Shown here: positions 6,007 through 48,585 of the stretch, piece after piece
Position numbering within the stretch: the stretch's first letter is position 1
How the letters are laid out: every line of letters begins with the position of its first letter
Source of the DNA: Vermamoeba vermiformis
Taxonomy: Eukaryota
Length of the DNA: 64,000 nt
Assembly (NCBI GenBank): GCA_045837725.1
Contig: JBEWZL010000227.1
Span: forward strand, 186,001 to 250,000
Direction of reading: 5' to 3'
Notes under the pieces: model-generated
Seen by the model: only the letters and a program-made list of their open reading frames with translations
What the model was told of the DNA's origin: nothing
The model's database searches: none
Translations under genes and position numbers: made by a program

Positions 6007-7158
6007 TTACAAATAATATCCTTGTTTCTCCATAAGATTTCCGTGTCCAGATTCGTCATAATCATAGCGAGTAATCCAAAAATGATTGCGCCAAAACGGT
6101 TGTGCTAATAACATCGAAGCTCCTCTAAACGTGTTACAGGTTCTACATTCTGCGCTATCTTTTCTGAATCGTATTGTGTTACTATATTTAGGTGCAAGTA
6201 GTCCAAGCTCTTTTGTAAGTCGCGGAACAATTCCAGGAAGTTTCGTGTTACCCCCTGAAAGGACGATGTTTGAATATAATTCGCTATGAATACTAGGCTC
6301 GCACTTTTGAATCGTTGTATGTATCATCTTGTGAACGCCATCTCTTTCAAGACCATATAGTTCCGGCTGGAATATTATTTCGTTGTGTTTGAAAATATCG
6401 TGGTGAAACTGCCAGATCTGACCATCAGCAAATTGGTACTGAAAATTGACTTCATCGTTACTTTTTTTCATTTCGCTATCATAATCTAGTGCTATATATC
6501 CGTGTTTCTCTATTATATCGTTGAGCATGTTTCGTTGTCCGTAAGAATCGTAAGATCCACGACCACTGTCAGTCAACGACTTCGCGAAGGACCCTAGAAT
6601 ATCCTGACGACCTATATCGAGTGTGACTAGGGAGGATAATATGCCCTTGCCGTCCTTAACAGCCATCGAGAATGTAGTCTGTCCGTCGGAGCATAGCACG
6701 ACGCCAGTACCCAAGCCAAGAGCACTGATCGCGGCACTCGCCGAATTCACAAAACACATTCCGGCGAGTTCTAATTCGCCAAATAAATATTCTGCTAATT
6801 TTTTACGAGTGTTTGAAGGTGTAGCTGGGTGTTCTATAAACATCAGTCCTGATTCGGCCGGATCGTGGCGAACTTCGTTGTACAAAGCGTGCCATAATAT
6901 CTTCTCCACAAATTTCCAGTTTGATACTATTCCTCTGGTAATAGGGAATTCCAACTCTTGCACGCCAACTTTGGATAGCGCTTCATCGCCAACGAAAACG
7001 TCTTTGATGCCAATTCCAGCGTTTATGTCTTGCTTGCGACTCGGAGGGTATCCGATGACCGTAGGGAATACATGCTCGGGTATTTCATCGGGTATTCCTA
7101 TTTTTGTGTAGGTTGAGCCAAGATCGATAATTAATGGGTCAAAAGTCGTATCTTCCAT
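6007..7158 (-). CDS. Divergent actin-like protein (paralog 1)
   Basis: Uninterrupted 383-aa ORF with IIDLGS..TKIG, VFPTVIG, DVFVGDEALSK, FPITRGIVSNW and LYSNIVLSGGNT. Confidence 0.9.
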   Translation of the reverse strand: MEDTTFDPLIIDLGSTYTKIGIPDEIPEHVFPTVIGYPPSRKQDINAGIGIKDVFVGDEALSKVGVQELEFPITRGIVSNWKFVEKILWHALYNEVRHDPAESGLMFIEHPATPSNTRKKLAEYLFGELELAGMCFVNSASAAISALGLGTGVVLCSDGQTTFSMAVKDGKGILSSLVTLDIGRQDILGSFAKSLTDSGRGSYDSYGQRNMLNDIIEKHGYIALDYDSEMKKSNDEVNFQYQFADGQIWQFHHDIFKHNEIIFQPELYGLERDGVHKMIHTTIQKCEPSIHSELYSNIVLSGGNTKLPGIVPRLTKELGLLAPKYSNTIRFRKDSAECRTCNTFRGASMLLAQPFWRNHFWITRYDYDESGHGNLMEKQGYYL

Positions 7159-7456
7159 ATCGATAATTCTGATTCTCTGTATTAGAAATAATATTATTAA
7201 CTTTTGAAAAATTACACCATCAGAGGGCAGCTAAATGCAACCTACGCTAAATAAATTCGGCGATCAGATGCCTGTAACGTTAGCTCGCAGATCCAAATGG
7301 TTGTCCTCACAAGATGTCTCTACCTCATGACATTTGTCACGTATAATTATGTAGGTAATGGTTCAATCGTGTCCACAAATGCAACAAAATTGACAAATAA
7401 AAATTTCTATTGGTTGAGGCCATTTACATCACAAGTTAATATTGATACCTCACATA

Positions 7457-9710: not shown

Positions 9711-14643
<4,933 letters not shown>

Positions 14644-15404: not shown

Positions 15405-20273
<4,869 letters not shown>

Positions 20274-31337: not shown

Positions 31338-33589
31338 ATGGAGAGCTCATTGTACTTCATCGATTTGCCCTCAGAGCTGATTTTTCAGATCGTATCTGGC
31401 TTTGAGTTTGATATTCGACACGTCATCAAACTTAGAGCGATCAATCGCGCTCATTACAAAGCATTCGATGTAGAAAATATTCTACAATTATATAAGCGTT
31501 ATCCTCAGCCAAAGGTTGTAGAATTGCAAAAAGGAAAGACTTTTTAGTAAGTGTAAAAATGTTAATTTCAATGCTATTTTATTTAAATTAATTTTAAAAA
31601 AATAATAGCACGCCGTATCATCGTGGTATGAACGAGATTCTCCTCGCATTAGTCAGACAGCTCGCGAAAACAATGACATGGCCACAAATCCGGAATAGTA
31701 CGTCGTTATTCTGCCTTTTTAGGATTAAAATTACTCTAATCGAATAAATATATCTAAATTAAATTATTGGTAATCATCAATTCAAATTTGTAAGGTACAT
31801 CCGAACTTGATCCGGAAATGGTTCCGACTTTTCTTTACTAACCGATTTATATTTATAGAAGTGGCAGAGTACGGAACTTATACGGGCGCTTATGACATAA
31901 GGATAGTTGCTACGTTAACAGCGATCAGATCCAAAAACAAGAACTATTTAACAGAGTTATTGGTGGATGCGCAGTTCGAAGCCGACATTAAAAAGAATTA
32001 TAGATTGAAGGCACTATATAACTGCGTTATGGAGCCTAATGACGAAGAATACACCAAGTTTATGTTCGCACATCCGATCATGGCAAAACACCTTGCTGAA
32101 GTAAGACTCAGTAGCAAATATCTTAGCGGGCTCATTGAGGATTATGTTATTGCCATAAAAGGCAAGCCTATCAAAATGGAAATTATTGCGCAGATTATTA
32201 TGTTATTCAAGCCTGAAGAACTAGCCAGCAATTATAATTGGATCCACGTCGTCACACACGCAAAGTTCGATATGAATATTATTAATGGAATAATGGCATA
32301 TTTATCACCGCCTATTCAGATCATTTACAAGGCACAAATCAAAAAATGTCCGGATTGCCTCTACAGCGCACTTTGTTCAAATTCTTTTGCAAGCTTATTA
32401 TCATTCTGGGAATACGGAGAATTGCCTACATCACAAGCATATTATATTAATGATGCTATAAGTCCTAATGGCTTAGAATGGCTGACAGAAAATATTCGAG
32501 TGGATTCGCAAGGCTATCGTCAAGGCTTAGAATTCCTGACTGGCGATACAGAAACGGAGAAACGAGTATTAATGCAAAGTTTATTACATGCTATTGATAA
32601 GAAGAAGAACGTCATATTCATCAATAACGACCATCTCGAGATTTTCAAAAAGTTAGCGGATCTTGGTCTCAAATTGCCTTTGTGCAGTGTATCTTGGCGC
32701 AAAATTATTGTAGACTCATGTTTATGCATGAGAGACCTATCGAAGATAATTGAAGTCGTTTGGTTGAAATTTCCGGATGTGATCCGAGAATTGCTACCCA
32801 GGATCTTAGTTTGGAGCATGGATATGCCTTATTTAGAATCAGTCGCCAACGAAATAATACAACGAAGTCCTAGCTCAATATTGAACGACTTAAAAGGCAA
32901 CCACTCTGGCTACACTCTGTTGCACGGATTCGCTAATAGCCTGAAAATGGTTACTAACACTCCGGGGCAAGTACTGAAAGTGATAGACTACCTTACAATA
33001 GGCCATGGTATGTTTATTATACTCAATTTATCATATTTTAACTATTCTATTGGCTGATTTAATTTTTTTTTAAGGCATCGATTTGAATACCTTGGACAAG
33101 CAAGGAAGAGCATTTTATGATTATTTCAATGATATTTGGCATCATAATGTGCCTATGGAGAATATCCTATTGTTCGAAGGACTATTAGATCGTGGTCTTC
33201 AATTCCGCTTGCATTCTGGACGGTGGATCTCGCCGTACTGGTTCAATCCTACCTTTCAACTAAATCCGCAAGCAAGGTGCATATCTATGGCTGTTAGAGT
33301 ACGGCCAAAGAAGTATCGTTGCATCGCTACAATTTCCTACGAATTTTTTGAAGGCGAGATCGCGGATTTAAAACTCGAAGCGAACGTTTTTTGGCATCCG
33401 CTTAAAATTCCAGACACAGAGCCTAGATATGTTAATATGGAAGTAATGCCTGGCGAGTATTGTTACCGTTGGATCATTAACTTTCAACCATTTGTTGATC
33501 CGAACTTGCCAATCGTTTTCTCCAAAGAAGGAGCGCAATACAATATTTTGATAGTACCAGAGAATGCAGAGGATAGTATGACATTATAA
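31338..33589 (+). CDS. F-box-like protein with a helical/ankyrin-remnant body
   Basis: IDLPSELIFQIV...IKLRAINR F-box-like start, followed by in-strand exons 31807-33057 and 33083-33589 with GYTLLH and DLNTLDKQGR ankyrin-like pieces. Confidence 0.65.
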
Positions 33590-33786: not shown

Positions 33787-34935
33787 CTACAACAGACCAA
33801 TAGGACACTTTGATTGGATTATTGAAGGGCCAGATTCGTTATATTCAGCTTTTGTGATCCAGTCAGCGAGATTCAAAGTCGTTGACAGCATCGATGCTCC
33901 AGTGAACGAGAGATCTCGCCGCAAATTCGGGTGAGGACCTGATTCGATCCTAATATGATCACTATACTCTGGTGCTAGTACTTTGAGCTCTTTGATCAGT
34001 CGTGCATCGAGTCCGCGTGTCAAAGAGTTACCACCGGACAGCACGATGTTGTTGAATAGTTCGCTCTGAATACTTGCATCACATTTCTTGATTGAACTGT
34101 AAATCATATGATGAATGCCGTCCTTTTCAATTCCGTACATTTCTGGCTTGAACAGAATTTCATTTTGAGTGAAAAGTTCGTGGTGAAATTGCCACACGGT
34201 GCCACTCGGATCTTCATAACTTGCTGCAACTTCATTCTCGGGCTTCTGCATTTCAGCATCGTAGTCTAGTGCGATATATCCGATCTTTTCGCGCATGTCT
34301 GCCACAATTTCTTGTTCAGCAGAAGTCGAGAACGAGCCCGGATACTTTGTTTCGATGTACTTTACAAGGCTGGTGCTAAGATCCTGAGCACCGATATCAA
34401 GTGTATTTAGTGTATTTATCAAGCCCTTGCCGTCCTTGACGACCATGCAGTACGTTGTCTGTCCGCCCATGCACAGTGCCACTCCAGTAGTGCGTCCAAC
34501 TGCCCTGATGGATGCGACACACGGATTCGCAAAGAAAAGTGCAGGCACGTTGAAATGTTCGAACATGATTTGTGCAGTCTTCTCGCGAGTATTTTTGGGT
34601 GTTAGTGGGTGCTCTAAGATCATCAGCGGATGTTCTTCAGGATCGCATCTGAGTTCGAAGTAAAATGAATGGTGCCAGATCTTCTGAATAAAATGCCAAT
34701 CTGCTATAAGTCCTCGATGAATAGGATATTCAATCACTAATACTCCGCATTTTGATAGCGCTTCGACGCCAACATAGCAGTCTCTTTGTCCCATCCCAAC
34801 CAAAATACCCGGATAAATATATCTTGGGTGTCCGACTAATGATAAGCACTCGGCATTAGGCTTATTATCACCTCCAAATCCAAGTTTTACTAATTGGGAG
34901 CCCAGGTCAAAGATGATTGGCCGAGGTTCGTCCAT
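33787..34935 (-). CDS. Divergent actin-like protein (paralog 2)
   Basis: Intronless 382-aa ORF with VGMGQRDCYVG, YPIHRG, ELRCDPEEHP, AQIMFEHFNVPA, FSTSAEQEIVADMREK, NIVLSGG and WITKAEYNESGPSI. Confidence 0.92.
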   Translation of the reverse strand: MDEPRPIIFDLGSQLVKLGFGGDNKPNAECLSLVGHPRYIYPGILVGMGQRDCYVGVEALSKCGVLVIEYPIHRGLIADWHFIQKIWHHSFYFELRCDPEEHPLMILEHPLTPKNTREKTAQIMFEHFNVPALFFANPCVASIRAVGRTTGVALCMGGQTTYCMVVKDGKGLINTLNTLDIGAQDLSTSLVKYIETKYPGSFSTSAEQEIVADMREKIGYIALDYDAEMQKPENEVAASYEDPSGTVWQFHHELFTQNEILFKPEMYGIEKDGIHHMIYSSIKKCDASIQSELFNNIVLSGGNSLTRGLDARLIKELKVLAPEYSDHIRIESGPHPNLRRDLSFTGASMLSTTLNLADWITKAEYNESGPSIIQSKCPIGLL

Positions 34936-35289
34936 TCTGTTGGATGTAACGCGTTACAAATCGAATCCTATTATTTCATTGAAGTATTAATAAGGAATTC
35001 AGCAGTAAAGTATTATTTGGAACTTTTTTTTTTAAGCGATCAAGAAATAATTGATTGATTAAATTGAGTGGTTTTCAATTTACTGTCCTGCATAAACTTA
35101 CTGATTCGCTTTATATTCCGAATTATACGGCCTTAATATCTAATTGTGATTTTGCCAGTGCTTGTGGTGACACGGAGCAAAAAGAAACAAAAACCAGTTT
35201 TGTTTGCATTTGAATTTGATAGCACGAAACCACGTTTCAAGTGCAATTCGGCATTAAATTAATACCATTATCGATAGCCCTAAGTGACG

Positions 35290-36992
35290 ATGAAAAAAAA
35301 GATGGAGGTAAAAATTCAGTTCATAAATCCGGATGTTAAATTTTATTTTGGTTATTCCTTCTCAAATAAATATTTGATTGGAATATATATCGTATTTTTT
35401 CCTAATATTTTAACTAATTTTAAATTGTGCAGATTGTCGTGCATGACTACGCGGAGCTTGAATTGAACCGCCTACAAAATAGAAAAAAATTCAGATTCGC
35501 TCCAACTTACGCTGCTGGAAATGGTTATATTCTTGAGTTATTTGGAGATTTTGACAATGCTAAGCTATTTATGGGAGCTTTAGAATTTGAAGATTGCCCG
35601 ATCAAACAGATCAAGTTGTCCGGGCGCAAAGATCCGGAAGAAAATCAATTTTCGTCAACACTGAAGGACATATCACCAGCTGGAGGAAAAGATAATAAGG
35701 CAGAATATAAATCACTCATTAAAAGGGCGATCAAAAGCTTGCAGAAAAATAGATCTATTACCTCGCTTATCATTGGTGGCCAATTTGATGGTTTATTCTT
35801 GGAAAATTTATCGGATCTGATCAGCGAAAGAATTAATGAAGTCATGGTGGTCTGTGGCAATATTGTGCCTTTAATCAAAACTGATGTGGTCGACACTTTA
35901 AAAATATTATCAACGAAGAAGCATATTACCAAATTAGGAATTGACTTACAAGTTACATCCGTACATTTCGATATGGATCAAGAGGAAAATATCCGCAATA
36001 GGCATAGCGAAGTTTTAAGCAAATTTCCTAATTTGGAATCGTTCAGGATGAAGATCTACGAGTTCATTTTTTCAATGCGAGTTGTTCAAGTATTGGCCAG
36101 ATCAAATAAGAAGTTACTAAATTTGGAAATTTCGATGAGAGAACTTCACAGACCTTACAGCTTCCCGAGCTTTTTTGAAAAATTTGAAGATTTAATTATG
36201 GCTAATCCTAATTTGGAAAAAATCACGATGGATGGTTTGTTCAGTGAAGTAAATCGACCTCAATTGCAAAGTTTCGCTGAACGAGTGGCATTTTGTCCGA
36301 ATTTGACGTACCTGGATCTGTCTAATAATTATATTCCTCTCGGAGTATTATCGGACATTTTAACCAACGCAAAAAACCTCAAAACTTTGGTGGGTCAGAA
36401 CTTGGTTTTGCACGATAACAACGATGACGATGAAACTGCGAAGTTTGTGGAGGTTCTCAAACACAATAATTCACTGAAAACGATGGATTTCAATAGAACT
36501 GCATTGTCTATTTTCAACGGCATCGCAGATGTGCTCAAAAATAACTCGACTTTGCAACGGATCCGCTTTAAATTGGCATCGCGAGTACCCAATGACTACA
36601 AAATCATATTAGACGCACTTAAATATAACACTAGCATCAATAGTTTTACTTGCAAATGTTTGGCGTTTGAACGGCCGCATGTGTCGGAAGAAATTTTCAA
36701 CGAAGTTACCGCTTGGGAAAAACAAGTAATTCTGCATAACAAGAATTTACGGGAATTTAACGATTACGATGCCGAACTGCGGCCCAATCGAGAACTATTC
36801 CTCAAACAAAAGATAGCCATCTGTTCGTTCATCAAAATGTTTGCTAAAAACACAGCGGGATTTACGAACTATTTACCGATGGAAGTGTGGCTTAGAATAG
36901 CCAAGTTCATGAACGCTCCTGGCTTGCGTAAAATCGATCAATTACTATTGGAGACTTTACAAAGCAACGAACGGCCAGCCCGAAAAGTCTAA
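35290..36992 (+). CDS. RNI-like LRR protein with a C-terminal F-box-like module (tandem copy 1)
   Basis: Short first exon MKKKME plus a 521-aa exon containing NLTYLDLSNN, LKHNNSLKTMDF and YLPMEVWLRIAKFM. Confidence 0.85.
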
Positions 36993-37345: not shown

Positions 37346-38969
37346 ATGAAGAAGAAAACGGAGGTCCAGGTAACGTGGATTAACACTCAAAAATCTTTAT
37401 TGTCAAATTTTATTTGAAAAAACATAGAAAAGGGGTTAAAATATTATTACGTAGATTGTTGAATCGCATATACAATTATGGAAATGCCTGGAAAAAAAAA
37501 GAAAATTCAGATTTGGATTGGGCGAGTTTGCAGAGCGCTTTACGCCTAATTTATACTTCAAAGCCGAAGATAAATTAATTCTCGACGCCCTAGCATATGA
37601 AGATTGCCCGATAAAGAGCATCAAGCTGTTTGGACATAAAGACCTGTCAAAGAGAGCCTACAAATCCGTTGTCAACAAAGCTATTCAAATTCTGCCTATT
37701 AATACGTCAATTACATCGCTTACAATTGGTCAACTGACAGATAATTTTTTGACAATTTTACCGATGCTGATCAGCCCAAAAATAACCGAAGTCGACATCC
37801 ACCCGGTGAATCCTCCGGAAAAACTTACAAATGTAATTACTATATTAGACATTCTATCAACGAGGAAGCATATCACTAGATTGGGCATCAATATCGACGT
37901 TTATCCTTCTACACACGAACTGAGGAAACTGATCGAGCCATTGAAGAAATTTCCTAATTTGGAATCGTTTAAATTTGTATTGGCCAACTCATCAATGCCC
38001 CTGTTTGGACTTTTCGTTCTCCAAGTTATGGCAAAGACGATGAAGAATTTACTAAATTTGGGAATTTCATCTCGGGGCAGGATCTATCAATCATTCGAGG
38101 AAGAGTTTGTTTTCAATGGACTCCGAGGATCCTCCGAGTTTTTTAACAGCATCAACGAGGCACTATCAGCTAACCCAAATTTGGAAAAATTAACAGTTTG
38201 CTGTTTTTTCAATGAAAACTATCAGCTGCAATTACAAAGTTTCACTGAACGAGTGGCACTCTGTTCGAATTTAACGTACCTCAATATCTCCCACAATACT
38301 ATTCCTGGAAAAGTCTTATTGGCCTTGCTGACGAACTTGAAGAAGCTCAACACTTTAATATGCTGTACTTGCGTTTTGACATTTAGTGACACCGAGGATA
38401 ACAGTGAGGATAGTGACTACGACAAGCTTATGGAAATTCTTAAACGCCACAATTCACTGAAAACGATGGATTTCACTGAAACAGTTATACCTCATAGACT
38501 GCTCAAAGAAATCTTAAAATGCAATTCGACGGTAAATCGGATCAGTTTCCAAGTTGTGTGCAGCGTTGAAAGATACAAAAAGATATTGGAAGCATTGAAG
38601 TATAACACTAGTATCACTAGTTTTAAATGCCACCCAGTAATAGCGGACATTTCAAAAGATGAACGGAGCGACTGCCGAAGATTGGAACAGCAAGTTATTT
38701 TTCATAACAAGAATTTACTGGAATTTAACGATTACGACAGCGAAATGGAGTCAAACAAAGCCCTATTTATCCGCAACAAGATATCAATATCAGCATTCGT
38801 CAAAATATTCGCAAAAAGCACAACTACGTTCACGAATTATTTACCGATGGAAGTGTGGCTTAGAATCGCCAAGTTCATGAACACTCCTTGCTTACCTGAG
38901 GTCGATAAATTACTATTGGAGGCAGTACGATCTTACGAACAAAAACAACCAAGTTCAAAACACAATTGA
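37346..38969 (+). CDS. RNI-like LRR protein with a C-terminal F-box-like module (tandem copy 2)
   Basis: First exon MKKKTEVQ, then a long exon clearly paralogous to copy 1 (EDCPIK, ANPNLEK, HNSLKTMDF, YLPMEVWLRIAKFM). Confidence 0.85.
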
Positions 38970-39370: not shown

Positions 39371-42037
<2,667 letters not shown>

Positions 42038-42682
42038 TCTGTAATAATAAGATAATTAAATAAAATTCAGATGCGCAACTACGCTTCAAAATAATAATTA
42101 ATAAATACAATGAGTATAATTACATTAATATAGGCAGTGGGAAATAACCCTTTCCGCAGATTAATAACGATATTTGAAATTCGGAAGATCAGATTTGATA
42201 GTTTAGCCGCCTAAATCTTCGTGGCTAATGCTTACTTTTCTAGGAGCAGAAAAAATAATACTAGGTACTTGTGTTATTGTTAAGATAGGACTGTTTAGAA
42301 AACTAATTCAATTTGAATTTCCGTTTTGTCCAAAAGAGGAGGACATTAGGTCCGCAGTATTACGTGTTATCTTGGAAACAGTACAAGAGCTTGTTGCGCA
42401 AAAAATCAATAAGGCATCGATTAAACATGGTTGTCGGGCCACTGAAGCGCACCGCGAGTTAATCCGATCGGAGAATCAGATTCACAATCAAATTGCTCGT
42501 AAACAACTCTTTTGAACCAAAATATATGAATAGCGATCTATAGGAGTGCTTGCGTAATACTTTAAGACTTGTTTACCACATCCAGATTTACACCATAAAA
42601 ACACCGTGTTTTTATTTTAGCGCTTATTACCGATATAATTCATCCGAAATTCAAGTTATTTTATAATTCAATTAATTTTTCT

Positions 42683-44053
42683 TTACATGTCTTGTTGTTG
42701 TTGCTGTTGCCTTAGCTGAGCTTCTAATTTCCTCTGCCGCCGTCTAGACAAAGGCACAAAAAAAATAAAATTATAAAATTATTCGCTACAAAGCTAGTTG
42801 AAATTGAATATACTATTATAGTAGTATTATAAGCAATAACACGTACCTGTCTAAATAAGTAAATGCAAAACTTCCTCCAACAATCGCTGCTGAAAATCCA
42901 GCCATATATTTAGAAGCCTAAAGCATTATAAAATATTATTAGCATCGTATTATATCGATTTGTAACGATAACGCCCGAAAATTCAAAAGCAGATCTAACA
43001 TCCAGATCCGCGCCAACGGCAGGCGAATAGGGATATTAATGATATGGTAGTACATGTATAATATACATAGTGACTATCTATAATAAGCTATTTAGAGTTT
43101 GTTCAACACGTACCGCGTGTCCAAAATCCTTCTTCATAAACATCGCCACAAAAATCGGGACCATCGGCGTCAGTGTACCTGCTGCAATACCAACAGCCGC
43201 GTGCTTGCCTAATAAGGAAATATTAGCAATGAAGCTTTGCAAATGTTTCTTTGTCTCGTTGCCGCAAATAGTGTTTTAGTCACGTTGAAAATTTTTACCT
43301 TCAGGCAAACTAGCAATGCAATCTGCAACTGAGTTACCAACACCTGCTCCTACAATAGGCCCGAATCCCTATAATTTAATATTAGAATTGAAATCAAAAG
43401 CGGATCTGGTCGGCAAAAATTGTTTCTCGATCGGGATCTCAATTTAAATTTGAATATATCGTGTATATTATAATGAACGTACTCTAACACCTAGTCGTGC
43501 AGCAAAAAATGAGTCCAATGAAAAGCCAGTTAATATGCCAAGCAATAGCAGTGATTGATCCACCAAACCAAATCTCAAAAATCGTTTGAAATTGTCATTT
43601 TGCGTGAAACCAGATGTGCTATTTCGTATTTTTCTAAATAAAGTATTGTTAATAGTGGTTTAATTGCCAAAAAGCCTGGAATAAGCGCTCTTCGTGGATC
43701 TGATGCGCAAAATAAATTCATTATTTCATCAATATTAATTATTTTGCTATATTCAAACGTTCGACAATATTTAATGCAACAGAATGGCGATATTCACAAA
43801 TTATAATATCAAGCTGCAAATTAAATTATTTAATATCACTGTTGCAAAATAATACTGGACGTCCGTAAATCGCAAAATTATTATTTAGGCCATACAATTT
43901 ATAGAATAAATTCAAGATATTTTTTGCGCGCATTTGTAGGGCGTAATGAACGCAGTTAACTCACTCGATGAATCCGCCTTCTTGTTTGGGATCTGTTGAA
44001 GTACTATCCTCTATTGTATTAGATATAGGTGGCTTTTCTTGTACTTTATCCAT
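42683..44053 (-). CDS. Small multi-pass membrane protein, TMEM65-like
   Basis: About six small exons give RFGLVDQSLLLLGILTG, GPIVGAGVGNSVADCIA and further hydrophobic helices. The pattern resembles TMEM65 (GFxDN...GNxxSD). Missed by the ORF track. Confidence 0.6.
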
Positions 44054-45120
44054 ATTATATTACACAATGTCGTTCTGGTGGTCAGATCGAACAGAAAGAT
44101 AAACAGCAGAAATTTATGAACGGCGAAACGACGGAAGGACGAAAAGAAACCAGGTCAATTTTTTGGTGACCGGCACCGTGTAAAAAGCAATTGGTACCGT
44201 TCTTTTGAAATTTCGCTCGATAAATTTATCCACTACCGCTGCCTGGTTATTTCCCGGTTTAATAATTCTAAGAAGTGGGCCTGTTGACCAATAAATTTTG
44301 CTGTTACTACGATAACATCTCACCACCACCACGGCATTAATTTATTTTTATTATTTATTACATCTGGCAAAAAAATGACACAGATCAACGACACTGATCA
44401 GCGTGTGCGCATCAGCTCAAGCTTTTGTGAGCGCCTAAAGGTTTTATATGACCAATATATGTTTACTCCAGGTGCCAAAAGACAAAAACGGACCTTCTAA
44501 GACATCGAGACAATTGGAAGGCAACAGCAAACCTATTTACCTAGGTATGTTTGTTCGCAAATGGAATAAAATAAATTCCTTATAACAATAAGACACGAAG
44601 AATGTGCCTAGCACAGACCATGTGCCTAGCCCAAAGAAAACCTAAGGACCTTGGAATTCAATAAAGCAGCAGACGAAAAAAGCGAAATAGACGATAGAAT
44701 CCATCCGTGGCAAAATATTTCAAAAAGGCACGCACAGAAAAAAGAATAAGGAAAAAGAGTATTTTGCAAAAGACGCCCACGCATCCACCACAACGGAATG
44801 GGGAAGAAAAACAAAAAATGAAGAACATTGAAGAAAAATAGAAGGACCCTGAACGATTTGATTGCAAAAGATGAAGGCTAATATCAGATCACGTTATTGG
44901 CAATTTATCAAAGAATCGAAAAGTATTAAAAAGCATGAGTAAATTTGCATTTTATAAGAAATGTATTTTTTCCTTCTTTTCTGTTCATACTCTGCCCATT
45001 CCTGTTTCTTGTCAGCAAAGAACATTTTCCCACGATTGCTCTCCATTTCCAAGAACAACCATTCTAATCTTTCCATTCTTCCATGCAAACTCTTAAACCA
45101 TTCCTGACCAAGCAATGAAG

Positions 45121-45200
45121 CCCCGCCCGAAAACCCCCCCCCCCCCAACAACCCCCCCCGCCCAACCCCCCCCCCCCAAGACGGCCCCCCCCCCCCCCCG

Positions 45201-45255
<55 letters not shown>
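45121..45255. repeat. Poly-C / poly-G low-complexity tract, possibly a sequencing or assembly artefact
   Basis: About 135 nt of almost pure C flanked by noisy A-rich sequence. Confidence 0.9.
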
Positions 45256-45256
<1 letters not shown>

Positions 45257-45401
45257 ATTTTGAAGTGCCGTTGAGGAGAAAAGAAGAAAAAAAAGAGAGA
45301 GACCAAAACCTATGTTGGCCGTAAGAAGCATACGCCCAATGGCGGATTCCCGGGATGTACTACGCATTATTTTAGATAGTAATTATTTTTTTATTTTAAA
45401 G

Positions 45402-45833
45402 GTCGACCGCTTTTACGAGTCAATGCACCCTCCACTTATTCGACTCTAGTCCGCGCAAATCAACAATGGCCGACCAATTTGAGCCCGTGCAAAAGCTACA
45501 AATCAATTGCATTGAATTTGGACGGCAAATCGAAGTTTCATCTGGATCACTTGGACTATTTTGATGGTAGGCGGCAACAGAACTGTAATCTTAATAACCA
45601 AACGGTTATTTATAGGATACTGTCTTGTTATTCCATTTGGAAAGTTTACTGGTGGCGATCTTGCCTTTCCACAGATCAGCACAGCTCTTCAAGCGAAGCG
45701 AGGCGATGTGGTGTTATTCCATTCAGCGCAACTAGTGCATGGTAACTTGGATAATATAGGTGGCAATCGTCGCTCGATAGTATTTTTTACTCATGATGTA
45801 TTAGTACGACCGTACATCAAAGTTACCAAATAG
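45402..45833 (+). CDS. TET/JBP-family 2-oxoglutarate/Fe(II) dioxygenase, catalytic exons (5' exons unresolved, possibly starting near 44376)
   Basis: Removing intron 45567-45615 gives SIALN..KFHLDHLDYFDGYCLVIPFGKFTGGDLAFP..GDVVLFHSAQLVHGN..RRSIVFFTH, which contains HxDxxD, the distal His and RxSxVxFxH. Confidence 0.8.
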
Positions 45834-46208
45834 TTCGATCTGAAAAATTGATCTCCAAAGTTTGCAGCTCGTTCTTTATTACAAACCATCATCAACCAAT
45901 AAAAAACACATTAAAATGCTTCGCAAGAACCATATTTTTAACTATGCATAACTAATTGTATTACAGCCACTGTCATCAATTTAAATCTGCGGTTGAATCC
46001 ACAGTAGCACTTTTTCATCACACCACGAGTATGAAATTAAGAATATAATATATACGTGGGTAAGCGTAGTTATTGTGATATCATTTAGCACGGTGAGACT
46101 TTTGAATATTTGTAAGTGTGGTTTTTCATCGCGGATCACCGAAGAAAAGAGCTTGATCTTCGCTTTAACATAAATTTATTGATTAAAATACTTTAAATTT
46201 GTAATACA

Positions 46209-46757
46209 CTATATTCTATTTCCTTTAAATTGTCCATCGATAATATTTCCTCGCCATTTATCAACTTTGAACTGAATCGTGATCTCCTGTGCGTGCCAGT
46301 TATATTTGAGAATAAATGGGACCCTCCAGTTCACTGCTGTCATTAATAATGAGAAATCACTATCAAATCCTACACAACCGGCTTCAAGAGTTGGTAAAAA
46401 GTTTCTGATCGCGGCCGTGTCGAAGCATTTGTATGTGGTAATCAGCATGTAGTCCGTGTTAAAAATTCTTCTGCGATTTTTTTGAAGGGTGTAGGTTATG
46501 TTGTTCTGTAAGCTCTTACTGAGGGGTACGTGGAGGATGCGTTTGAAGATCGTGGTTAGCAGGCCATCTTTAACTTTCAGCTGAGAAACAAGTGAATCTG
46601 GATGCATAGCCGCAGAAATAAATGCATCGAGACGAATGGAGGCATCCTCTTCCTCGTAGGTTCTCCCCTCAATTTTGATCACGGGGATTTGGTCAACATA
46701 TTGTTTTAATTGCGCTAATCGATCTGCCTTTAATCTCCGAAGTTGTCTTGCATCCAT
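46209..46757 (-). CDS. Hypothetical protein, intronless
   Basis: 182-aa ATG ORF with globular composition, preceded on the minus strand by CCAAT and TATAAA. No family recognised. Confidence 0.65.
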   Translation of the reverse strand: MDARQLRRLKADRLAQLKQYVDQIPVIKIEGRTYEEEDASIRLDAFISAAMHPDSLVSQLKVKDGLLTTIFKRILHVPLSKSLQNNITYTLQKNRRRIFNTDYMLITTYKCFDTAAIRNFLPTLEAGCVGFDSDFSLLMTAVNWRVPFILKYNWHAQEITIQFKVDKWRGNIIDGQFKGNRI

Positions 46758-47166
46758 TTTAAATATATATACGCTTGAGCTGTGGTATTCATTATGGCTG
46801 GTGTGCGTTTATTTATAGGATTGGTCCGCAGAATTTTTTGGCCGGTTTTTTTCGTTTTTACACGGTTCTACGGGCGGACGATTGACCTGGCCGAGAATTG
46901 CGATTAACCTATTACTCCCTTTGAAAGACATTGTTACGCAGCTTAGAACCGCCACACGAAGTTACCATACTACGTTTCAGCAACAGTTACTTTTTCTGCT
47001 GATCCACAAGCATTACAGCAGCGAAGACTACGGTTATATGCGGCTATCTATGCGAGAATATTTATTGAATTTCACGGAGAAAGAAGACAAAGCAGGTCTT
47101 ATGTTTCTCTCTTTATCAAATTGATACTAAATATTATTACAAACAATTACATAATTATAGCTATTT

Positions 47167-48585
47167 TTAAACATTATCAACGGCATCAACGATCCTCGCG
47201 CTAATTCTCGCCTGATTCTTTCGCATTTCATCGACTTCGTCAACTGTAGTCTCGAAACTAGCTCCACAAGGTCTCGTTAACTTCTTAATATACGCTGTTA
47301 ATGCATATAGCCTTGACAACTTGGCTTGGTGCGTTCTATCGGGATACATCCGATTCCATAGGGCATTACACCAGGCTATTTTTATCGTCGCTATAATTGG
47401 TACCAAAAACGATAAGCAGCCCACAGCTACTGCAGCAATGAGCAATGGATTCGTTTGATCGAAGCTAAGGCACAATGACAGTAATATGACGAATGCTGTC
47501 GCTAAAATTGGCTCGAGTGTGGATGCTGCTTCAGCGGAAAGTTTGAACGGCTCGAAAAAGAACGGACGAACGCAAAGTACGATGCGTGCTAGTGTTGGAT
47601 AGAAGCATACTATTTGCAAGATCATAAAGGCTAGGAAAGCTATAGAACAATACACGAATTAGTGCGACATCCACCGATCGAGAATTCGTTAAATTCTATT
47701 ATTCGAACAGATAGAAAGATTCAACCTCTCAAGATTTCCATAAACGAAAGGAGGGTTGTAATTTCATTTTTAAGAGGTAAGAAGGAAAGATCAAAAGAAG
47801 TTGGGTCGGATCTCGTCAAACGTACCGTGCTGGAACGGACTGTCTTTGAAGTTGTCCAATACGAATCTGCCGTAAGTGAGCAGTATCATAACATACTGCG
47901 CGATATTGATGGACACCCAAAAGATGTAAAGCAAAGAAACCTTCGCTTGCGTCGATCCAGAAATGTAGACGTCTCCAATGTGCGTGCATTTCTCCTCTGT
48001 TATCGGAAAAGGAAGTATTAGGTACATTTGCAACGATTATATTATCCGATAATTAGAAGTAGACAAAATTACGACGAAATTTGGTTGGAAAGAACGCGGA
48101 TCCCGTTCCGTTTGTGCAACGAAATGGCCGCGTTCGCTTCGGACATTCATGTGAAGCGTTATTGATAAATAAATATTATATCATCTTTAATTTCGATAAA
48201 GGCCGCATTTTTCGACTGGATTTGAATTTTTCATAAGAAGCCAATAAAAAATAATCTTTACGTGCGCAAAGAACGTACCTATTTTTTTCCTCTCCTTATC
48301 TCGTTGTAATCTCCGCTTAATTGTCCTCTTTAATACGTGCAGAGAATCAAGGGAATCGTCCCAGCATAAGCCATAGAAATGTTTGTTGACGAATTGCACG
48401 CGGGTCAAGGACTTGGCGTCTAATAATTGGAAAATATAGATGGATATTTCCGGCGGGAGGTACTGTTATGCACGAGATAGTTAATTTTAAGTGAGTTTAA
48501 CGAAAATTACAAGATCGTTCGGATCGAGCAAAAGAGTACTTGCCTGCCAGTAATTGTCTGCTTTAGATAACCCAATAGGCTCCAT
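47167..48585 (-). CDS. F-box protein, possibly joined to downstream multi-pass membrane exons
   Basis: MEPIGLSKADNYWQ|YLPPEISIYIFQLLDAKSLTRVQFVNKHFYGLCWDD is a clear F-box. Same-strand hydrophobic exons lie at 47791-48033 and 47167-47655. The middle splicing is uncertain and this could be two genes. Confidence 0.55.

Follow-up and report, generated by a model that had tools for sequence, protein, structure and literature searches.

The last two coding exons of a probable TET/JBP-type DNA-base dioxygenase gene, incomplete as assembled

The locus and its neighbours

The stretch of DNA analysed here as a whole, referred to below as the window, is 64 kb long and comes from a free-living microbial eukaryote. 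Two short plus-strand open reading frames lying close together within it give, once joined, an open frame of 127 codons that carries the motifs HLDHLD, LVHGN and RRSIVFFTH. A previous, sequence-only reading of this DNA had proposed a 49-nt GT-AG intron at 45567-45615 between these frames and had pointed to the same three motifs, and both claims were borne out by the reading frames and by the sequence. The exon start proposed there, at 45402, fits the AG at 45400-45401, which follows a T-rich run. The features of the locus, and the genes on either side of it, are as follows.

~39504-42055, minus strand: gene for a PH-domain and AGC-type protein kinase, upstream of the locus, with at least 8 exons and introns of ~140-200 nt
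45113..45256, no strand assigned: C-rich tract with C runs of 13, 12, 15 and 55, ending 145 nt upstream of the exon 1 acceptor
45383..45401, plus strand: T-rich run with AG at 45400-45401, the likely acceptor of another intron lying further 5'
45402..45566, plus strand: predicted penultimate coding exon (exon 1), the product of which comprises a helix, the first strand of the core and HxDxxD (HLDHLD)
45567..45615, plus strand: predicted 49-nt GT..AG intron, phase 1 (GTAGGC...TTATAG)
45616..45833, plus strand: predicted last coding exon (exon 2), encoding the rest of the double-stranded beta-helix, with the stop codon TAG at 45831-45833
46209-48465, minus strand: multi-exon F-box gene, downstream of the locus and convergent with it, with a 186-nt intron at 47640-47825 that is spliced in a contig of sequencing run X5

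The frame of exon 1 (45401-45565) has KFHLDHLDYFD as its C-terminal residues. That of exon 2 (45618-45830) starts with YCLVIPFGKFTGGDL, contains later LVHGNLDNIGGNRRSIVFFTHD, and is terminated by the TAG mentioned above; an AATAAA lies about 65 nt 3' of this stop codon. There is no in-frame ATG among the spliced 127 codons, and the frame of exon 1 is closed just upstream by a TAA at 45380-45382, and an exon further upstream must therefore lead into this coding sequence. As determined by tblastn, the TET/JBP locus is present as a single copy within the 64-kb window.

Several other features of the window may be mentioned. An ABC-C-type transporter gene is duplicated in tandem on the minus strand (9753-14505 and 15474-20143), with approximately 84-85% nucleotide identity between the copies, the first of which has short GT..AG introns. 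Two intron-less minus-strand ORFs of the actin family, at 6010-7230 and 33790-34953, obtained moderate scores with the Pfam Actin model (206.7 and 282.6 bits, respectively), and they are predicted to encode divergent actins or actin-related proteins. Three long plus-strand ORFs, at 31774-33054, 35424-36989 and 37455-38966 (427, 522 and 504 aa), matched no Pfam family at E ≤ 0.001, with faint hints of LRR in two of them.

Family assignment, exon join and catalytic residues

When exon 2 alone was compared with Pfam, the first family was Tet_JBP (PF12851), at 21.2 bits and E 1.9e-4, under the gathering score of 34.9 bits, and the runners-up were 2OG-FeII_Oxy_3 (E 3.3e-3) and PhyH (E 0.1); no Pfam match was obtained with exon 1 alone. 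Searching 1.84 billion representative proteins with exon 2 by phmmer returned 255 matches at E ≤ 1e-3, including 6 at E ≤ 1e-10, the best identity being 49%. A word-indexed protein search with exon 2 for longer proteins gave 21 candidates, none at E ≤ 1e-3. We then scanned with Pfam 26 long homologues, chosen from the 150 listed. Tet_JBP was found at E ≤ 0.01 in 24 of them, ranked first in 23 and reached its gathering score in 10; for the remaining two, only 2OG-FeII_Oxy_3 and/or WelO5 were listed. Among the five homologues closest over both exons, Tet_JBP was first in every case and reached the gathering score in three (P0090, 51.7 bits; P0084, 44.1; P0050, 40.3).

Comparisons with known structures gave a similar picture. 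Used as a query against every sequence in the PDB, a profile from the alignment A1 (59 sequences) matched NgTet1 best (5cg8, E 2.6e-15; 4lt5, E 6.3e-15) and then CcTet (7vpn, E 3.6e-9, and a further entry at 4.7e-9), followed by prolyl 4-hydroxylases (E 0.015-0.018), TET2 (0.067) and CMD1 (0.075). The structural comparison relied on P0084, the closest of the full-length relatives, as modelled by AlphaFold (pLDDT 91.2, pTM 0.88). Foldseek of this model against the PDB placed CcTet (E 1.2e-11, TMq 0.68-0.72), NgTet1 (E 3.5e-10, TMq 0.66-0.68) and CMD1 (E 5.8e-9) ahead of a viral prolyl hydroxylase and AlkB (both about 3e-6, TMq about 0.43); TET2 was found at E 4.7e-6. No JBP structure was present among the matches listed in the A1 profile and Foldseek searches of the PDB. 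In a protein atlas queried with P0084, Tet_JBP was carried in 29 of the best 30 clusters. With exon 2 as a query, the first cluster had Tet_JBP in 15% of its members, which serves as a lead only. The nearest clusters of this atlas consist mostly of Basidiomycota proteins with Tet_JBP. One metagenome locus, selected from 479 pattern matches in a scan with exon 2, was rejected as a false positive (GC 0.72, no match to the family HMM).

The HxD...H arrangement, with RxS ten residues past the distal His, is common to many 2OG oxygenases. Hence, one could suppose that the locus encodes a generic 2OG/Fe(II) oxygenase (of the prolyl hydroxylase, AlkB, PhyH or halogenase-like kind), resembling TET in this widespread core only. 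Such a view would be in line with the weak scores of exon 2 on 2OG-FeII_Oxy_3 and PhyH, with the lack of a Tet_JBP match in 2 of the 26 homologues, and with the phmmer search of the PDB with exon 2, which returned nothing but two insignificant matches, one to a leucine hydroxylase (E 0.41) and the other to a putative oxygenase (E 0.84). However, TET entries were ahead of the others by 6 to 13 orders of magnitude, with TMq of about 0.7 versus 0.43, and the TET-specific Asp of HxDxxD is kept together with the V/F/H last strand. As neither AlkB nor prolyl hydroxylases were the best matches, whether by profile or by fold, the assignment to TET/JBP stands, and the generic reading appears largely refuted and very improbable. 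Membership of the TET/JBP family, proposed already in the sequence-only reading, is supported by the agreement of the first rank in Pfam, the A1 profile and the fold search, the predicted fold being that of the relative P0084.

The evidence for joining the two exons comes from a family HMM, built from 78 homologues of at least 200 aa (of the 150 listed), all found with exon 2 alone, and searched with the --max option against all 3205 six-frame fragments of the window. Exon 1, which had no part in finding the homologues, matched HMM positions 131-177 with an E of 2.2e-4 among these 3205 fragments, and exon 2 matched positions 177-244 (E 3.8e-32). The alignment of the spliced product is unbroken over positions 132-244 (145.8 bits), and the matches of the exons abut at position 177 with no insertion or deletion, which argues that the join is more than a product of chance. 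Moreover, exon 1 alone, compared by phmmer with the 150 homologues, found P0090 at E 1.9e-5. In the spliced product the distal His lies 50 residues after the first one, exactly as counted in the NgTet1 row of the profile alignment, in agreement with the NgTet1-like motif spacing noticed previously. The join can be regarded as well supported by homology.

Other introns of the window, delimited by the continuity of conserved motifs, have 55, 65 and about 103 nt in the ABC transporter gene and about 146 nt in the kinase gene, and one of 186 nt was set by a spliced contig. The donor of the 49-nt intron, GTAGGC, is weaker than five other donors in the window (GTAAGT twice, GTGAGT, GTAAGA and GTACGT). 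In a codon-usage scan of 41700-46200 the correct frame was the best of three for both exons, with a weak signal, and no convincing upstream exon was seen in this interval. Our preferred explanation, to which we give a probability of roughly 60%, is that these ORFs represent the final pair of coding exons in a gene encoding a small Fe(II)/2-oxoglutarate DNA-base dioxygenase of the TET/JBP family, similar to NgTet1 and CcTet.

A1 has 12 columns with a conservation of 90% or more, and the spliced product retains all of them (N, H, D, D, C, G, F, S, H, G, R and S), with N, H, D and D residing in exon 1, and the columns of HLD, of the His of LVHGN and of the Arg of RRS are kept in 56-57 of 57 relatives. 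The Fe(II) triad HxD...H is present, and the 2OG-binding Arg lies ten residues past the distal His, a spacing found also in NgTet1. HLDHLD in exon 1 corresponds to two Fe(II) ligands and the Asp that reads cytosine N4 in NgTet1; exon 2 encodes the distal His (LVHGN), the 2OG-binding Arg (RRS) and the V/F/H base pocket. In the A1 profile alignment the last strand, R-R-S-I-V-F-F-T-H, aligns on R-I-G-L-V-Y-F-A-H of NgTet1; for human TET2 the sequence-only reading gave RISLVFYQH. The full pattern RxSxVx(Y/F)xH, put forward in the sequence-only reading, fits this strand, but the short form given there for NgTet1, R..V.F.H, is one residue short, as NgTet1 reads RxGxVxFxH.

According to PMC4678852, the flipped 5mC in NgTet1 is bonded by N147 at O2, by H297 at N3 and by D234 at the N4 amino group; the last residue, equivalent to TET2 N1387, sets the preference for cytosine, and the pocket is formed by A212, V293 and F295. 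The equivalents of D234, V293, F295 and H297 are kept at the locus studied here, that of D234 being the second D of HLDHLD. The statement that the base-contacting positions are conserved was therefore correct for these four, but the equivalent of Asn147 falls in the front half of the domain, which is missing.

If the residues act as their homologues do, the His and Asp of HLD, together with the His of LVHGN, would hold Fe(II), and the first Arg of RRS would hold 2-oxoglutarate. The pocket receiving the flipped target base would be lined by the second Asp of HLDHLD as well as by the last-strand residues V, F and H. By analogy with NgTet1, where the equivalent Asp hydrogen-bonds cytosine N4, the most likely reaction would be 5-methyl hydroxylation of 5-methylcytosine in DNA, with thymine or N6-methyladenine as possible side or alternative substrates. 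The proposal of a protist enzyme oxidising 5mC or thymine agrees with the family and with the retained residues, but it is only the C-terminal ~127 residues that are present, and an activity would have to be deduced from them.

Transcription, the missing front half and the state of the gene

No RNA data set was listed as matching 45290-47300. RNA reads were compared with the window from 45260 onward, the poly-C tract being kept out of the reference. The RNA-seq runs labelled with the organism (X16-X18) yielded 2, 0 and 0 reads on 45260-48300, a coverage too low to judge. Another run, X5, in the form of contigs, bears a different organism label and is presumed to be RNA. It contains a 188-nt contig covering 45635-45822, inside exon 2, with 0 differences. 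In the same run the neighbouring F-box gene is represented by one contig with a minus-strand GT..AG joint of 186 nt and by another, of 466 nt, in the last ORF of that gene, and the intergenic bins are empty. The presence of a spliced contig in the neighbour, together with the empty intergenic bins and the exon 2 contig, suggests that exon 2 is transcribed; on exon 1, the intron and the strand, run X5 is silent, and in none of the runs was the 49-nt intron crossed by a read or contig. The spliced contig of the F-box gene shows 25 differences from the window, to which two other X5 contigs nearby are identical, and this suggests that it represents another allele, strain or paralogue.

As assembled, the gene is incomplete and comprises the catalytic rear half only. 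The relatives carry about 100 residues N-terminal of the encoded part, which form two strands and several helices in the P0084 model. No match to HMM positions 1-130, which would make a complete domain with an N147-type Asn, was found in any frame of the window. Outside the locus, tblastn with the 150 homologues gave nothing better than E 0.009, and the best fragment in the six-frame HMM search scored 4.1 bits; among plus-strand fragments of 42000-45400 the best score was 1.1 bits. The 'G.W' motif of the relatives occurs once in the plus frames of 42000-45400, amid stop codons.

The power of this search was assessed in a control in which the HMM was rebuilt leaving out each of 15 members, one of which was dropped (no strict HxDxx[DN]); for the remaining 14 the N-terminal regions were scored in pieces of 45 residues. 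E ≤ 0.01 was obtained for 11 of 36 pieces, and one or more pieces of this quality were obtained for 8 of the 14 proteins; the top-scoring piece had at least 7.0 bits in each of the 14, compared with the window background of 4.1 bits. Thus, a typical front half encoded in exons of ordinary size would probably have shown. Two candidates for upstream coding sequence were considered and rejected. A KEHFP-like ORF piece at about 45015-45065, taken as a helix of the family, has no GT donor before its stop codon, and exon 1 already covers this region of the HMM. The other was a mini-exon with GTAAGA at 45321 as its donor; the frame that would fit is cut off by a TGA at 45272-45274 and lacks an ATG, and the ATG at 45312 is in the wrong phase.

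The DNA upstream of exon 1 is of low complexity, A-rich and C-rich, and no family-like coding sequence was found upstream of the C-rich tract. The C runs of this tract and one T10 are the only homopolymers of at least 10 in 64 kb. Introns of the window range from 49 to about 190 nt, and the tract therefore sits about where the preceding exon would be expected. It may be a technical fault or assembly gap, a real sequence within a longer intron, or a scar of truncation. We consider it close to an even bet that the ~100 N-terminal residues exist in the real genome and were lost at the anomalous poly-C tract through a gap or misjoin; that they are present and undetectable seems unlikely.

Another explanation would be that the locus is a recently truncated relic, from which a rearrangement or insertion near the poly-C tract removed the 5' half, and which makes no enzyme. 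Neither an ATG nor a detectable N-terminal half was found anywhere in the window, the control described above indicates that a front half should be detectable (14 of 14 members above background), and the low-complexity DNA upstream would be compatible with such an event; among the relatives in the database, too, short fragments are numerous, often with 71-160 aa. On the other hand, the 127 codons contain neither a stop nor a frameshift, all near-invariant residues are kept, and both splice sites of the 49-nt intron are intact, as is the upstream acceptor. When scored on the HMM span common to all, the spliced half reaches 144.2 bits and thereby exceeds 24 of the 78 training members (range 96.6-180.1, median 153.15), and a score inside the range of the training members points to a coding sequence free of decay. 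Exon 2 occurs, moreover, in one probable RNA data set, and the poly-C tract itself looks like a technical anomaly. The relic remains a serious contender, which we hold to be somewhat less probable than not.

If the two exons do belong to a TET/JBP gene, as we prefer to think, they could be the 3' end of a host gene, intact, present once and not carried by a transposon, that encodes a 5mC dioxygenase similar to NgTet1, with its 5' exons concealed by a fault of the assembly at the poly-C tract. This full version is possible, yet we regard it as rather doubtful. Were it true, the organism would carry oxidised methylcytosines and an active pathway of demethylation or anti-silencing. We know of no TET described in the relatives of this free-living microbial eukaryote.

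Comparison with known systems

Among the closest known systems is NgTet1, a Tet-like dioxygenase of Naegleria gruberi (PDB 4lt5, 5cg8 and 5cg9), which ranked first when the family profile was compared with PDB sequences (E 2.6e-15). The two have in common the His-His distance of 50, the His-Arg distance of 10, the HxDxxD motif and a last strand of the form Rx(S/G)xVxFxH. NgTet1 is also a small single-domain enzyme devoid of the Cys-rich insert of animal TETs, a further likeness to the gene in the window, and the Asp at the position of D234 points to 5mC as the preferred substrate, as in NgTet1 (PMC4678852). In contrast to NgTet1, the locus lacks everything N-terminal of the helix that precedes the first core strand, including the equivalent of Asn147. 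The identity is low, the modelled relative P0084 being only 15-16% identical to NgTet1.

CcTet of Coprinopsis cinerea (7vpn, 7w5p and 8jkk) is the best structural match of P0084 (E 1.2e-11, TMq 0.68-0.72) and came second, after NgTet1, in the profile search of PDB sequences (E 3.6e-9). It is larger, with chains of 347-383 residues. According to the titles of the PDB entries, CcTet was crystallised with both 5mC and 6mA DNA, which indicates that the choice of substrate is not fixed in this clade.

A separate problem is whether the gene might be cargo of a DNA transposon, shielding the element from silencing by methylation, as in mushrooms, rusts and truffles. TET/JBP genes encoded by fungal transposons, namely KDZ, Plavaka, hAT, EnSpm, Helitron and others, have been described (PMC12730594). 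They belong to the same Pfam family, and the Basidiomycota proteins with Tet_JBP that dominate the nearest atlas clusters would favour such an origin. However, the locus lies between ordinary host-type genes, those for the PH-domain kinase and the F-box protein, and no transposase family was matched in the flanking ORFs. Neither a transposase, nor terminal inverted repeats, nor a second copy was found within the 64-kb window; nothing from 41700-46200 is repeated at another place in the window, and the inverted repeats present are only short and of low complexity. From what the 64-kb window shows, carriage by a transposon is quite improbable.

Mammalian TET1-3 and kinetoplastid JBP1/2 belong to the same superfamily and have the same catalytic core; JBP acts on thymine. 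TET2 is far more distant from the family profile (E 0.067) than NgTet1 or CcTet, and the locus differs from mammalian TET in having no Cys-rich domain, no CXXC domain and no large low-complexity insert. Enzymes of the TET/JBP family write 5hmC, 5fC, 5caC and 5hmU into DNA, and small genes of this kind have been documented in Naegleria, fungi, green algae, kinetoplastids and phages. As such small genes are already well known in protists and fungi, and as half a gene is visible here, the value of the locus lies mainly in a corrected annotation and in flagging a probable assembly fault. From a live copy it would follow that cytosine methylation exists in this organism, together with a means of removing or re-coding it, and NgTet1 and CcTet would gain a further small and tractable TET for comparison.
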